Source: an uncultured Mediterranea sp.
GTDB lineage: Bacteria; Bacteroidota; Bacteroidia; Bacteroidales; Bacteroidaceae
Assembly: GCA_939791845.1 (NCBI GenBank)
Contig: CALNEX010000001.1
Span: 1 to 52,353 of the forward strand
Direction of reading: 5' to 3'
Length of the DNA: 52,353 bases
Both the position numbers and the translations under genes were made by a program. Every line of letters starts with the position of its first letter. Position 1 is the stretch's first letter. Shown piece after piece: positions 4,201-28,147 of this stretch. The notes below the pieces were generated by a model that was not told the origin of the DNA, did not search any database, and worked only from the letters and a program-made list of their open reading frames with translations.

Positions 4201-4273
4201 TAACTTTGCACTTTTTTTATAACAGATTGCCCTTTTTTTATAACGCAGGTTTGAAATATTTGTTGTAACTTTG
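4201..4273 (+). promoter_or_regulatory. Pilus operon promoter region with 21-bp-spaced direct repeat
   Basis: TAACTTTG at 4201 and 4266; TTGCnCTTTTTTTATAAC at 4206 and 4227. Confidence 0.6.
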
Positions 4274-4312
4274 CCGCCGAAAACAAAAGAATGAACGGTC
4301 ATATATTGCAAC

Positions 4313-4861
4313 ATGCGTAAGAAAAGAAGCATTTACTGCATACTATGCAGTCTTGCGCTCTTTGCCCTCACGGCAAAAGCCACTGCACAAGACGTTGGAC
4401 TCAAGACCAACGCCCTCTACTGGCTCACCACCACCCCCAACCTGGGCGTGGAGGTGGCCCTCAACAACCAATGGACGCTCGACCTCTCCGGCGCCTACAA
4501 CCCCTGGACATTCAAGGACGACAAAAAGATGCGCTTCTGGCTCGCCCAGCCCGAGGCACGCTACTGGCTGTGCGAAAAGTTCGAAGGACACTTCGTCGGG
4601 CTGCACGCCCACGGCGGACAGTTCTACGGCGGCTTCCACTCCAAGCGCTATGACGGCTACCTGGCCGGAGGCGGACTGACCTACGGATACGACTGGATCC
4701 TCTCCCCCCACTGGAACCTCGAGGCGGCCATCGGCATAGGATACGCCTACCTCTGGTACAAGGAAAGTCCCCGCATACACTGCATCAAGTGCGAGGTGGA
4801 CAAGGACAAGCACTACTTCGGCGTCACCAAGGCCGCCGTGTCGCTCATATACATATTCTAA
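4313..4861 (+). CDS. DUF3575 outer-membrane beta-barrel protein of the type V pilus locus
   Basis: KTNALYW..TTPNLGVE, YNPW, QPEARYWLCEKFEGHFVGLH, YFGVTKAAVSLIYIF with C-terminal Phe. Confidence 0.88.
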   Translation: MRKKRSIYCILCSLALFALTAKATAQDVGLKTNALYWLTTTPNLGVEVALNNQWTLDLSGAYNPWTFKDDKKMRFWLAQPEARYWLCEKFEGHFVGLHAHGGQFYGGFHSKRYDGYLAGGGLTYGYDWILSPHWNLEAAIGIGYAYLWYKESPRIHCIKCEVDKDKHYFGVTKAAVSLIYIF

Positions 4862-10218: not shown

Positions 10219-10299
10219 ACGACCGTCGTAGATACTCCTCTATGACACCCGTAGATACTCCTCTACGACCATCGTAGATACTCCTCTACGACCGTCGTA
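10219..10299. repeat. 23-bp-period tandem array with TACGACnGTCGTA-type palindromic core (about 3.5 units)
   Basis: GTAGATACTCCTCT at 10228, 10251 and 10274. Confidence 0.9.
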
Positions 10300-10508
10300 T
10301 AAAATAGAACTTACAAATCATAAACCAACATACCTCGCTCTTTGACATCTTGAGACGCACAGGAAACTGTGAGAACCAAGGGAATCCGTACACAATCTTC
10401 TCCCCTCTTCTTTCCTCATCTTCGGATAATTTGCGTATCTTTGTGGCGTGCAAGCACGGACATCATCAATCAAGCCATCAAATTATTAATTAAAGAAAGG
10501 AGAACATC

Positions 10509-10778: not shown

Positions 10779-10841
10779 GCTTCGCCTTCTACCGCGGCCA
10801 GGGCCTGGACCTGGTCTGGAACGAACGCTGATTCCCCCGCT

Positions 10842-10936
10842 GTAGAGACGCGGCACGCCGCGTCTCCTGACACACGACCAACCCCAAAACGGGGAGACGC
10901 GGCACAACGGGGAGACGCGGCACGCCGCGTCTCTAC
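10842..10936. repeat. GTAG-family REP doublet (REPIN/BIME-like) with an internal partial copy
   Basis: GTAGAGACGCGGCACGCCGCGTCTCC ... GGAGACGCGGCACGCCGCGTCTCTAC in inverted arrangement; partial GGAGACGCGGCAC near 10893. Confidence 0.85.
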
Positions 10937-11041
10937 AACGGCGACCATCCCCCCATTGTCCCCCCTTTCCTATGCGTCCCAAGATGCCGGCGGGCACCGA
11001 GACAACAACCATTAACGTAGAACGCATAGAACGGAATGACA

Positions 11042-25024: not shown

Positions 25025-26440
25025 ATGAAAACCAACCACCTCATACCCCTGCTTCTCGCCCTTCTGACGTTGGGCGCCTGCGTCTCCCCGCAGGACGAGG
25101 CAACCGATTGCCAGGAATGCAACGAACAGCAGATCGTCATCAAGCTGGCCAGCGACAACGCCCCCGCCACCCGCGCCGGACGACCCCTGACCAGCAACCA
25201 ACCCAACCAGGACGTGGACCGCGTGATGCTCATCGTCTGCAATAAAAACGATAATAAAATCGTCTACACTAAACTCCTGACCGACTGGATGACCACCAGC
25301 GACATCTACATCGACCAAAACGACCGCCGCGGCCGCGAAGACGTGGTGAAGCTGGAGGGGGAAGAACTGCTGCCCGTAGGAAACTACAAGGTCTACGCCA
25401 TTGCCTATACCTATAAAGGAGAAAACAATGGCAAGAATACACAATACACAGTGAAAGGAAAGGCAGATGACGGCACAGATCCAGACATGAATCTGAACGA
25501 CTATTGCGAAGGCTTGAAGAACTTTGAAGATGGCAGCAAATTCACCGACAACTTCACCCTCACCGATGCCCCGGGCGAAGAGCTCTTTGCCGGCTCGCAG
25601 GAGTTCACGGCCAACGCCGCCGGCTTCGCCACCGAAGTGGTGCTGAACCGCCAGGTGGCCGGCGTCTACCTCTACGTGAAGGACATCCCCTATTATGACA
25701 ACCTCGCCCAGTTGCGCCTGATGCCCGCCACGGACAATGACGGGCTGGTGCTGGGACGGTTCGCCAACGAGGACATTGCGGAGAACGGCGAGGGACAGAA
25801 TGAACTGTATGTGATGAACGGAACAACTCCGGCTACGCCGGTAAAGCCCCTCTGCGAAATCAATCTGACAGACTGGTTCACAGACGGGAAAATTACACAA
25901 GAAGGCAACTTGATTTCCACAGAGGGATGGAAACAGCCGGATTCTTACCCCAAAGACAAATATACATTCCAAGAAGGCAGCTTCTTCGGGGGCAGCTTCG
26001 TGATTCCCTTTGCGGCCTCGGCAACAGAGAGCACAAACTCGCTGGAAATACAACTGGTCAGCAATACAACGGAGAATGGTGATAAAATAGAAAAAAGATG
26101 GTCAGTAAAGCTGCCGCAAAAAGACTTAACCGCCCAAAGCGGCAAGATTTGGCATTGGGATGCCAACACTGAGGAATTCCTTGACCCCACAATAATGCCC
26201 GCACCCGTCACTGAAACCGTCACCAACTACTCCCTGCTCCGCAACCACCTCTACTGTATCGGCAACAAATTCACGGACACGGGCGAGGACCTGCCCCAAT
26301 CGCTGTACACGAAGCAGGACATCCTGCTGACGGTCATCGCCGAATGGGACATCATTTATGACATGGTGCTGGAGCCGGGATCCGAACAAGATCAATCCCT
26401 AACACGCGAGAGAGTCAGTCAATCAGGCAAGTCAATTTGA
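25025..26440 (+). CDS. Type V pilin lipoprotein, paralog of the major pilin
   Basis: LGAC; ATRAGRP site; ELFAG; LNRQVAGVYLYVKDIP; LRNHLYCIG; WDIIYDM. Confidence 0.8.
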   Translation: MKTNHLIPLLLALLTLGACVSPQDEATDCQECNEQQIVIKLASDNAPATRAGRPLTSNQPNQDVDRVMLIVCNKNDNKIVYTKLLTDWMTTSDIYIDQNDRRGREDVVKLEGEELLPVGNYKVYAIAYTYKGENNGKNTQYTVKGKADDGTDPDMNLNDYCEGLKNFEDGSKFTDNFTLTDAPGEELFAGSQEFTANAAGFATEVVLNRQVAGVYLYVKDIPYYDNLAQLRLMPATDNDGLVLGRFANEDIAENGEGQNELYVMNGTTPATPVKPLCEINLTDWFTDGKITQEGNLISTEGWKQPDSYPKDKYTFQEGSFFGGSFVIPFAASATESTNSLEIQLVSNTTENGDKIEKRWSVKLPQKDLTAQSGKIWHWDANTEEFLDPTIMPAPVTETVTNYSLLRNHLYCIGNKFTDTGEDLPQSLYTKQDILLTVIAEWDIIYDMVLEPGSEQDQSLTRERVSQSGKSI

Positions 26441-26538
26441 AACGCCGTGAGGCGGAGTAACCTACCGTTTGCCCGGCCATAGCGATAAGCCGGGTACTTG
26501 TCAGCCAAGACCACGCTGCGAAGCGGGGTGGCGCAAGT
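26441..26538 (+). ncRNA. Candidate structured RNA with three GNRA-capped hairpins
   Basis: CGCC-GTGA-GGCG; GCCCGGC..TA-GCGA-TA..GCCGGGT; ACTTG..CCAC-GCT-GCGA-AGC..GTGG..CAAGT. Family not recognised. Confidence 0.5.
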
Positions 26539-26556
26539 TTGTTTGTTTTGTTTATA

Positions 26557-26593
26557 GGAACCACGACTTTCGGGCCGTGGTTCCGCTTTTTTT
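26557..26593 (+). terminator. Rho-independent terminator of the pilus operon / RNA candidate
   Basis: GGAACCACG..TTCG..CGTGGTTCC followed by GC and T7. Confidence 0.85.
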
Positions 26594-26673
26594 GCCATCT
26601 TTTCGCCACAAAGTTGTCATATTTGATTTATTCTTATTACTTTTGTGCTCTATAACACAGTTTTGCAGCAGTT

Positions 26674-27375
26674 ATGGTAAAATCGAGCATCCCCAACATC
26701 CGCATACCGGAGCTGATAGCCGACATGTGGTCACGCCTCAACGAGGAACAGCGCGCCTACCTGTCCGGCCAATTCACCCTCCAAAACTACAAGAAAAACG
26801 AGGTCATCCACTGCGAGGGCGAAACCCCCACGCACCTGATGTGCCTGCTGAGCGGAAAGGTGAAGATCTACAAGGACGGTGTGGGGGGCCGCAGCCAGAT
26901 TATCCGCATGATCAAGCCCGTGGGCTACTTCGGCTATGCCGCCTACTTCGCGGGCAAGGACTATGTGACGGCGGCGGCGGCCTTCGAGGCATCCACGGTC
27001 TGCCTCATCCCCATGGCCGCCATCCGCACCCTGATTGCGCAAAACAATGACCTGGCCCTGTTCTTCCTCAACCTGCTGTCCGTGGACCTGACCGTGGCGG
27101 ACGAGCGCACGGTGAACCTGACGCAGAAGCACATCCGCGGCCGCCTGGCCGAGTCGCTGCTCTTCCTGAAGGAGAGCTATGGCCTGGAGGAGGACGGCTC
27201 CACGCTGAGCATCTACCTCTCGCGCGAGGACCTGGCCAACCTCTCCAACATGACCACCTCCAACGCCATCCGCACGCTGTCACAGTTCGCCACCGAGAAA
27301 CTCATCACCATCGACGGCCGCAAAATCAAAATCATAGAAGAAGAAAGACTGAAGAAAATCAGCAAGATAGGCTGA
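26674..27375 (+). CDS. cur: Crp/Fnr-family regulator, probable Cur (BT4338) ortholog
   Basis: cNMP-like domain plus LSREDLANLSNMTTSNAIRTLS HTH; recalled similarity and synteny with trxB-lolA-ftsK. TACTTTTG promoter element at 26638-26645. Confidence 0.82.
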   Translation: MVKSSIPNIRIPELIADMWSRLNEEQRAYLSGQFTLQNYKKNEVIHCEGETPTHLMCLLSGKVKIYKDGVGGRSQIIRMIKPVGYFGYAAYFAGKDYVTAAAAFEASTVCLIPMAAIRTLIAQNNDLALFFLNLLSVDLTVADERTVNLTQKHIRGRLAESLLFLKESYGLEEDGSTLSIYLSREDLANLSNMTTSNAIRTLSQFATEKLITIDGRKIKIIEEERLKKISKIG

Positions 27376-27528
27376 ACATTCCCCGCCTCCGGACAGGCGT
27401 GCCGCCGCCCGCGGACGGGGGTACGGGCGGACACGGGCGGGGGCATGGGCGGACACGGACGGAGATACATAGAAATAAATGCCAAGAAAGTTGCTCAAGT
27501 AATAAACTTTCTCTATCTTTGCCACACC

Positions 27529-27873
27529 ATGAGACGAAAAATCATAGCATACGAACATTATTATAAAGACTTCTTCGACACACTGGATACAGGAACCCAG
27601 GAAAAAGTCTTATACGGCTTGCTCTTACTGAAAACACAGGAGAGACTGCCAGCCAAATATGTCAAGTTCCTGAAAGATGGCTTGTATGAATTGAGAATAG
27701 AATGGCAAGGGAACATCTATCGCATCTTCTTTTGTTACGATGAAGGACAAATTGTCATCCTGTTCAACGGTTTTCAGAAGAAAACCCAGAAAACACCCAA
27801 CAAGGAAATCAACAAGGCTTTGAAACTAAAGGAAGAATATTATGAACGGAAAAGAAGAAATAAAGATGTTTGA
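27529..27873 (+). CDS. RelE/HigB-like toxin (second paralog)
   Basis: MRRKIIAY...GLYELRIEWQGNIYRIFF...LFNGFQKKTQKTP.KEI.KA; TATCTTTG at 27514-27521. Confidence 0.85.
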   Translation: MRRKIIAYEHYYKDFFDTLDTGTQEKVLYGLLLLKTQERLPAKYVKFLKDGLYELRIEWQGNIYRIFFCYDEGQIVILFNGFQKKTQKTPNKEINKALKLKEEYYERKRRNKDV

Positions 27874-28147
27874 TGTCGATGCACAGCTGGATGCTGCATT
27901 CGGCAAGGAAGGCACTGAAGAACGAAAAGCCGCGGAAGACAAGGCCTATGCTTTCTTCACAGGCCAGATCATTGAAGAGGCCAGAAAGAAAGCCCGCATG
28001 ACCCAAGAAGAACTTGCCGAGAAAATCGGCACAAACAAGTCTTACATTTCCCGTGTGGAAACAGGAAAGACAGAACCCAGGATATCCACATTCTACCGCA
28101 TCATCAATGCTTTGGGGCTGAATATGGAACTCACTCCTGCCCTATAA
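27842..28147 (+). CDS. XRE-family HTH antitoxin (second paralog)
   Basis: IEEARKKARMTQEELAEKIGTNKSYISRVETG; overlaps the toxin 3' end (alternative start 27866). Confidence 0.85.
   Translation: MNGKEEIKMFDVDAQLDAAFGKEGTEERKAAEDKAYAFFTGQIIEEARKKARMTQEELAEKIGTNKSYISRVETGKTEPRISTFYRIINALGLNMELTPAL

Follow-up and report, generated by a model that had tools for sequence, protein, structure and literature searches.

Bacteroides are already known to employ repressor small RNAs with a U-rich seed, and type V pili, behind whose genes the element described here lies, are adhesion structures of the gut Bacteroidales. Two such RNAs, MasB (BTnc201, PMC10994844) and BatR (BTnc167, PMC10861873), have been tested as repressors in B. 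thetaiotaomicron and are listed separately in a 2026 review (PMC13750123). MasB has its tested pairing site at positions 41–50 (PMC10994844), while BatR, with a published seed window of 86–109, represses cell-surface genes at their initiation regions and has its seed freed by 5′ processing (PMC10861873). Bacteroides lack Hfq (PMC13370968), and the control described for pilus loci is promoter inversion (PMC12940148). We analysed a 52,353-nucleotide stretch of an uncultured Mediterranea (hereafter the window; contig C1 of genome G000, which is 63% complete), in which positions 26443–26593 of the + strand form the structured 3′ end of a pilus operon. This element is one member of a multicopy RNA family of the Bacteroides group, which is real, uncatalogued, restricted to the genus and under selection at the level of RNA. 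In the literature covered, which is partial so that a prior mention is possible, no description was found of the motif, of a seed shared by MasB and BatR, or of structured RNAs behind pilus operons.

An RNA family at the ends of pilus operons

Members of the family measure 110–200 nucleotides (nt) and consist of a GNRA hairpin, one or two variable hairpins, a single-stranded GUUUGUUUUGUUU and an intrinsic terminator (Table 1). The original prediction, made from the letters of the window, had placed three GNRA-capped hairpins, a U-rich linker and a UUCG-looped terminator here, and every one of these sequences is present where it was said to lie. Hairpins 1 and 3 are solid, each with four Watson-Crick pairs, but the GNRA closure of hairpin 2 (TA-GCGA-TA) has a probability of 0.29. 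Across the family, the hairpin 2 apex instead has an RGYG tetraloop above a closing pair that covaries, and the GNRA register was rejected, having 32% of cells paired against 84% in the RGYG register, where four of four pairs have changed on both sides. To regard three GNRA loops as a strong signature was therefore an overstatement: the family loop of hairpin 2 belongs to another class, and among 513 GNRA hairpins with four Watson-Crick pairs in 3.85 Mb (both strands) there are seven adjacent pairs within 100 nt.

Table 1. Positions in the window of the parts of the element and of the genes and sites associated with it.
Feature	Position	Strand	Evidence
Hairpin 1, CGCC-GTGA-GGCG; 4-bp stem and GUGA tetraloop, the 5′ landmark of the family	26443..26454	+	sequence, fold, covariation
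Linker with CTACCGTTT	26455..26470	+	sequence; three other G000 copies have TACCGTTT ahead of the U-rich core
Hairpin 2, 7–8 bp stem; loosely closed loop with UAGCGA, the RGYG-type apex of the family	26471..26495	+	fold, family alignment
Hairpin 3, apex CGCU-GCGA-AGCG (26514–26525), resembling the CU-GUGA-AG apex of MasB	26496..26538	+	orthologous loci, Rfam BTnc201 alignment
U-rich single strand, core GUUUGUUUUGUUU at 26541–26553; predicted seed	26537..26554	+	conservation, fold, likeness to BatR
Intrinsic terminator, UUCG loop, 7 U	26557..26593	+	sequence, fold
Predicted target site: partial complement of the seed immediately behind the TAACTTTG box at 4266, in the first leader of the same operon	4280..4298	+	−13.5 kcal/mol, top 2.7% of 1367 leaders
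Operon-first gene (DUF3575)	4313..4861	+	Pfam PF12099, E 3.4e-72
Last gene of the pilus-type operon, 471-aa lipoprotein	25025..26440	+	open reading frame; stop 2 nt 5′ of hairpin 1
Downstream neighbour outside the element: TACTTTTG promoter box and Crp-family regulator gene (26674–27375)	26638..27375	+	Pfam cNMP_binding and HTH_Crp_2

When 26441–26593 is folded, pair probabilities are 0.79–0.86 for hairpin 1, 0.98 for the stem of hairpin 2, 0.92 for the apex of hairpin 3 and 0.99 for the terminator. Folding of the whole region is unremarkable against shuffles (z of −1.1 to −1.8 on the + strand, −1.78 in one run, and −3.16 on the − strand), and a generic terminator scan fails to flag the terminator. 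At the gathering score, Rfam covariance models, known ribozymes included, gave no match in the window or in 19 family loci, so that the novelty of a family that had gone unrecognised at first stands. The −7 box of Bacteroides promoters, TAnnTTTG, is absent from 26000–26637. Run X1 carries 26448 T>C, with the GNRA loop of hairpin 1 preserved.

That this is selected RNA structure beyond what a terminator needs, as originally claimed, is backed by covariation, by folding of the middle part and by strand bias. Among 41 distinct pattern hits the variable pair of hairpin 1 is CG in 32, TA in seven, TG in two and CA in none, with loops of GTGA (27), GCGA (7), GGGA (4), GAGA (2) and GTAA (1), a class that the pattern imposes. 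In 40 sequences found with a covariance model, many of them redundant with its training set and aligned by fitting to the model, all four pairs of hairpin 1 show two-sided changes and 100% of cells are paired; CACC/GGTG, CGTT/AACG and CGCT/AGCG are visible as stem variants. The stems thus covary. The middle part, which the pattern leaves unconstrained, has a median folding z of −3.45, with 33 of 41 below −2, and internal G-U pairs stand to A-C mismatches as 65:8 on the sense strand against 21:33 on the antisense strand, in a set that leaves out two near-duplicates and three loci from outside the genus. Both the covarying structure and the sense-strand bias are direct observations. The apex of hairpin 2 keeps GCUU/AAGC while the base of its stem varies, and in three orthologous loci (the window, L091 and L116) the hairpin 3 apex, the core and the UUCG loop are kept while stems have been rewritten, with pairing kept in the terminator; L116 has lost hairpin 1. 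RNAalifold, run on a MAFFT alignment, recovered hairpin 1 alone because the other stems vary in length. The U-rich linker, first taken as filler, is in fact the most conserved part of the element and its link to MasB and BatR: the core is invariant or nearly so in alignment A1, where the search pattern imposes it, and is also retained in the copies found by the model.

Family and position are likewise observed directly. BLASTN, suggested as a check, returned no relatives beyond 24-nt scraps; motif and model searches did recover them. G000 holds five copies (E 5e-25 to 6e-5), the window's among them; the other four were revealed by a search with the core motif and all confirmed by the covariance model, whose 32 training sequences had the window's copy among them but none of those four. 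In C14 the copy follows a DUF6562 lipoprotein gene that closes a DUF3575 cassette; in C20, an uncatalogued gene whose end resembles a tip pilin and which has only the contig edge upstream; in C41, an HU-like gene preceded by two fimbrillin genes; and in C55, a gene for a secreted protein, likewise uncatalogued, that is truncated at the start of the contig. Beyond G000, a two-gap pattern identified 45 loci in genomes of named species, 42 of them in Bacteroides, Mediterranea or Caecibacteroides, with Mediterranea massiliensis, Caecibacteroides pullorum and Bacteroides clarus among the named isolates that carry the element, and the three loci outside the genus, which lack terminators, were dropped; the same pattern matched 88 metagenomic stretches (80 fetched, 50 distinct) and nothing in viral contigs. 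The model finds matches in 53 of 151 genus genomes at E<=0.01, 17 of them at E<1e-10. Outside the genus, where 20 candidates per genome were scored and absence means not found among those searched, matches are weak: 21 of 151 genomes of the order at E<=0.01 (best non-genus match 1.8e-5), and, within the family, E of 5e-6 to 7e-5 in three genomes belonging to other genera. The full architecture is missing from all four non-genus matches examined (L155, L176–L178). In L177, from another genus (G340), glnA is followed by the perfectly paired hairpin GACGCT-GTGA-AGCGTC and a U-rich stretch that is degenerate, but by no terminator; this is perhaps a remote relative.

The element starts a median of 17 nt after a stop codon, and within 60 nt of it at 33 of the 37 loci (from 42) that have a callable upstream gene. 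These 37 genes comprise 10 of pilin families, five DUF5106, one DUF3575, one HU-like and 20 without a Pfam match; 27 carry a lipobox-like motif. A terminator shared with the upstream mRNA, as here (stop at 26440, element at 26443–26593), is a trait of small RNAs derived from a 3′ untranslated region (3′ UTR), and of the three options first offered for the element (3′-UTR small RNA, ribozyme-like motif or mobile RNA) it is the first that fits best.

Several further copies deserve mention in their own right. A conserved secreted protein of about 590 amino acids has the element directly after its stop (L068, L078, L081, L103, L110, L134, L137, L139 and G000:C55); an initial label for it, OmpA, was dropped, Pfam, NCBIfam and PDB being without a match. 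Human-gut-type Bacteroides carry 1–8 copies of a longer subfamily (L142–L147, L151, L152, L043, L056, L066), laid out as CGCU-GUGA-AGCG, a long hairpin, GCCU-GUGA-AGGU, core and terminator, and several of these lie some 10–15 kb from a divergent AraC gene. One B. thetaiotaomicron copy comes directly after the annotated primary transcription start site (TSS) of BT_1004, and hence some members may be leaders or driven by promoters.

Leader complementarity and a proposed circuit

On balance we favour, with modest confidence, the view that the element is a 3′-UTR-derived repressor RNA providing feedback and cross-talk among pilus loci. Transcription of the operon would run through to the terminator, and a nuclease would cut near hairpin 1, as the lack of a TAnnTTTG box suggests; a stable small RNA would then be released from, or retained at, the end of the pilus message, its hairpins protecting the 5′ end and holding the seed open. 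The fold is compatible with this mechanism, since the core is unpaired with a probability of 0.91–0.98 in RNAs whose 5′ end lies at hairpin 1 or beyond it and is mostly closed (0.28) if the preceding 60 nt, the pilin tail, are still attached, a calculation made for the window's copy alone. Predicted partners of the U-rich strand are the A-rich 5′ leaders of AraC genes in the cassettes and of operon-first DUF3575 genes, and the pairing would repress these genes; pairing 20–45 nt upstream of the start codon would mask an A-rich initiation region, as in FopS, BatR and MasB. The AraC proteins, in this proposal, would activate pilus operons. Should every step hold, expression of one pilus operon would hold down its own activator and damp the remaining pilus loci of the cell.

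An excess of seed complementarity in these leaders is directly established. The target scan covered 1367 G000 genes with crude gene calls, and background leaders came from G000 alone. With the family seed, two cassette-type AraC leaders of G000 rank first (−25.2, two near-perfect sites) and fourth (−19.0) of 1334, where 16 leaders reach −16.5. AraC leaders reach −16.9 in G022, −16.5 in G127 and −19.8 in G029, and one of two reaches −17.2 in G071; values of −16.5 or better are thus found for six of seven AraC leaders in genomes with strong copies vs none of 35 from other genomes, in a comparison between kin that are not independent, many of the other genomes also bearing seed-carrying RNAs. The mean of the first five AraC leaders was reached by none of 300 permuted seeds and none of 300 shuffled leader sets. 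Leaders of operon-first DUF3575 genes (21 full-length genes, −60 to −4) fall within the top 5% in 11 of 21 cases, the window's own included (p 7e-5); an A-matched control gives p 8e-4, shuffled leaders did as well in 0/200 and permuted seeds in 5/200. Last genes before an element, which served as a negative set, have two of 32 leaders in the top 5%. The orientation of the complements is fixed, U-rich on the transcribed strand in elements and A-rich in leaders. Exact 11-mer complements, in eight genomes, occur in the leaders of genes for a DUF3575 protein, a TPR lipoprotein, a flavodoxin and a HEAT-repeat protein, and equally often inside coding regions.

A two-gene unit of AraC and a HEAT-repeat protein, beside a polA-like gene, has three seed complements in G000 (C12:1453–1461, 2558–2566 and 2668–2676), and in the corresponding unit of G029 (C49:22358–23520) their positions are conserved with G000 despite diverged leaders.

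A number of results weigh against this interpretation. Among the runs compared with the window (eight of the 11 listed), none of six RNA runs covers the element, though all six cover the Crp regulator gene; the data consist of contigs only, which cannot reveal RNA ends, with the organism at low depth, and are uninformative on this point. Over 40 family members the median unpaired probability of the core is 0.69, and it exceeds 0.8 in only 11. The AraC lead, the −16.5 cut-off and the −60 to −4 window were all chosen post hoc; a first DUF3575 test, on 28 callable leaders of all DUF3575-domain genes from −150 to +30, was not significant (p 0.12), and 10 of the 21 operon-first leaders lie outside the top 5%. 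The AraC profile has no match in 13 of 18 element-bearing genomes, some of them 92–100% complete. In those human-gut-type Bacteroides whose cassettes bear the seed, AraC leaders pair weakly (mean −11.8, with 13/200 permuted seeds as good) and show no preference for the seed variant of their own clade over the alternative one. Genome-wide, the seed stands modestly above permuted seeds (4/40 as good on the mean of the top 20), its complementary 7–9-mers are not enriched in leaders, and lipoproteins are not enriched among targets (6/50 vs 5.6). Finally, because the genomes are kin, the p values overstate the case.

Even so qualified, a seed-sharing RNA at operon ends, together with matching sites in the leaders of regulators and first genes, makes a specific and testable circuit.

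Alternative explanations

Of the other explanations, the one with the best, if clearly minor, prospects is that the hairpins and U-rich strand act in cis, stabilising or positioning the pilus mRNA with no free RNA acting in trans; we consider it unlikely, and this estimate covers jointly a barrier to 3′ exonucleases, a landing site for a protein and pairing with the 5′ leader of the same transcript. A module of this kind would account for the strict position just 3′ of the last stop codon, for the lack of a promoter box and for the partial complement in the leader of the own operon, and MasB is a strong ligand of RbpB (log2 fold change 5.6). Yet the best complements in G000 lie on unlinked AraC transcripts, on other contigs, the core is the tested seed of the stand-alone RNAs BatR and MasB, and a decay barrier needs no exact core sequence. 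An RRM_1 protein, moreover, was not found in any of five near-complete element-rich genomes, nor in G000, so that RbpB is not needed for the element to persist.

Improbable, to a greater degree, is that CAAAC-AAAA-CAAAC is the DNA site of a transcription factor, for instance of the cassette AraC at its own operators, the copy before the terminator being a second operator within an ordinary structured 3′ UTR. Operators are often doubled, and the sites lie directly after the −7 promoter box of leaders, are doubled in two AraC leaders and consist of a short direct repeat; the orientation, however, is opposite and fixed between elements and leaders, the motif persists in 13 of 18 genomes without the AraC in question, and the surrounding hairpins have a G-U bias of the RNA type.

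Still poorer are the chances of an RNA with a tertiary fold, whether ribozyme-like or serving as a signal for processing, with the GUGA loop at hairpin 1 docked on the conserved CU:AG pairs in hairpin 2. Such docking is known from group I introns, and the GNRA loop (of a class imposed by the pattern) and the GCUU/AAGC apex on a varying base are what it would call for; but L116 and C14 lack hairpin 1, a single middle hairpin is present in C41, C55, L067 and L083, no Rfam ribozyme matches and no junction nucleotides are conserved. The idea of a plain terminator, without further function and with hairpins upstream that are incidental and came along with the cassettes, fares slightly worse: the cassettes are indeed related by descent and the folding z of the whole region is modest on the + strand, but the two-sided changes in all four pairs of hairpin 1, the persistence of hairpins whose sequence has turned over completely and a core whose conservation far exceeds that of the terminator stem are at odds with it. 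A DNA stem-loop marking the target of a diversity-generating retroelement, or part of a mobile retro-RNA, is largely refuted, for although many copies follow large tip-pilin-like genes, the class that such retroelements diversify in Bacteroides (10.1101/2024.11.15.621889), others follow DUF5106, HU-like and other genes, the strand bias is RNA-like, the viral contigs hold no pattern match, and RVT_1 was found in one of five element-rich genomes and not in G000 at its 63% completeness. The ribozyme-like and mobile RNAs offered in the original prediction are thus unsupported, since the middle hairpins vary in number and sequence and four of the five element-rich genomes yielded no reverse transcriptase.

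Cassette setting and relation to described RNAs

The element closes a same-strand series of genes running from 4313 to 26440, which encode the DUF3575 protein, an OmpA/TPR-like protein and lipoproteins with weak to clear matches to type V pilins. The last of these products has no match in Pfam and a weak one to NCBIfam FimD (E 0.0018; 1.6e-7 for its orthologue in L091), both under the curated cut-off. This reading frame had been thought to overrun its conserved tail into the structured region; the overrun is real, with 24 residues after YDM vs 11 and 10 in two orthologues, which end 13–14 codons earlier, but it stops at 26440, short of hairpin 1. Run X1 holds two alleles of the pilin tail (26360–26440), the window's and one five bases longer near 26377, and the longer would bring a TAA at 26400 into frame, restoring the earlier stop; the overrun therefore looks like a frameshift at the level of alleles.

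Downstream of the element, the Crp-family regulator (which we take to be Cur) has a 5′ region kept in 29 of 36 genus genomes, where the element was not found by BLAST, and is preceded by glnA at 22 of 28 loci of relatives. In G022 the order is glnA-AraC-DUF3575-pilins-element-Crp regulator, which assigns the AraC of G022 to the pilus cassette and, given the usual place of glnA, means that the cassette has inserted between glnA and the regulator; the glnA-AraC piece of G000 is on a different contig from the window. Ten genomes have 2–8 DUF3575 genes each, and hence several such cassettes.

Other features of these loci are recorded here. Two Gp49/RelE-like toxin genes flank the pilus region (27445–28147 and 70–699), and the former has an HTH_3 gene as its partner. 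At 10225–10300, 3′ of an HU/DUF4469 gene, lie short direct repeats, with three occurrences of GTAGATACTCCTCTAYGAC, and a GAGACGCGGCACGCCGCGTCTC palindrome recurs at about 4046, 10846 and 10914, the last two within the region 10820–10940. Around the DUF3575 operon starts L297, L321, L322, L324, L330, L332 and L335 (genomes G010, G029, G015, G174, G158 and G078), oppositely oriented CCGTTAC-N7-GTAACGG repeats are paired a few hundred bases apart. They are probably invertible promoters, a similar motif having been reported for invertible pilus promoters (PMC12940148); no such pairs were found in G000.

If it is regulatory, the element, coming from the tail of an mRNA for envelope genes, would resemble CpxQ and MicL, enterobacterial 3′-UTR-derived small RNAs that limit other envelope proteins; these are single-copy and Hfq-dependent, and the likeness drawn here is one of kind. 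FopS/GibS offers another parallel: its members, present in multiple copies in Bacteroides, have in common a single-stranded U-rich seed ahead of the terminator and act on surface-protein operons by repressing the first gene at its initiation region (PMC11697453). It differs in having another seed (FopS-10 begins GTGTTTTTCATAGTATTAG), a length of 65–70 nt, no upstream hairpins, promoters of its own in 13 of 14 cases and glycan-utilisation loci as targets (PMC11697453). Membership of FopS was rejected: the R1/R1′ seed (GUGUUUUUCAUAG...) at its 5′ end, compared through the FopS-10 primer sequence, is not in the element.

A telling weak Rfam match of the window is to BTnc201/MasB (RF04177; 18.7 bits, E 0.78), with the U-rich linker aligned base for base. 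The gathering score of 105 is not reached: true MasB loci score 117–126 bits and family members at most 49, the Rfam MasB model giving 30–49 bits on 10 of 18 non-MasB loci. The element is therefore not a member of RF04177 but, as judged from sequence, shares the 3′ module of MasB: a CU-GYGA-AG hairpin, then GUUUGUUUUGUUU, then a terminator (PMC10994844), found at 26496–26593 in the cmscan alignment. If the Rfam consensus is taken to start at position 1, the MasB pairing site falls in the core stretch. MasB is a single promoter-driven gene of 100 nt at a fixed ABC-ATPase locus, without hairpins 1 and 2 (PMC10994844), whereas the element has no promoter box of its own and lies elsewhere. Synteny was rejected too, as MasB loci are placed elsewhere and glnA is what usually precedes the slot in front of the Crp regulator. 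A looser pattern (GNRAAG, spacer, core), of which MasB is one class, matches 48 of 151 genus genomes, up to eight times each, vs eight control matches in total.

The core also resembles BatR (TSS 3787748). The comparison rests on the published sequence row (supplement of PMC7366714, from position 72) and not on an aligned BatR locus; by a hand count on that row, positions 86–109 read AATATTGTTTGTTTTGTTTGTGTT, preceded by GTGA and with the terminator next. Identity of the core with this seed window is observed directly: 13 of 14 bases agree with the GUUUGUUUUGUUUG that precedes the BatR terminator, the last being A in the element. BatR too has about 150 nt, a structured 5′ part, a GUGA hairpin ahead of the seed and a terminator directly after it, but it has its own promoter and is described as one stand-alone gene (PMC10861873). 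The element lies in operon 3′ ends, occurs in up to at least seven copies per genome, has other predicted targets and shows no synteny with batR.

It is conceivable, if rather doubtful, that Bacteroides carry a second paralogous superfamily of small RNAs, defined by a GYGA hairpin and a GUUUGUUUUGUUUG seed and including MasB and BatR, whose pilus members would repress their own AraC activator and rival pilus operons from the 3′ end of each expressed operon; pilus choice would then be governed by RNA in addition to promoter inversion. Independently of that reading, the element ties the separately described MasB and BatR to one seed, along with several further paralogues per genome, which bears on how their deletion phenotypes are read; in the superfamily reading, redundancy among the RNAs that share the seed would mask single deletions of masB or batR.

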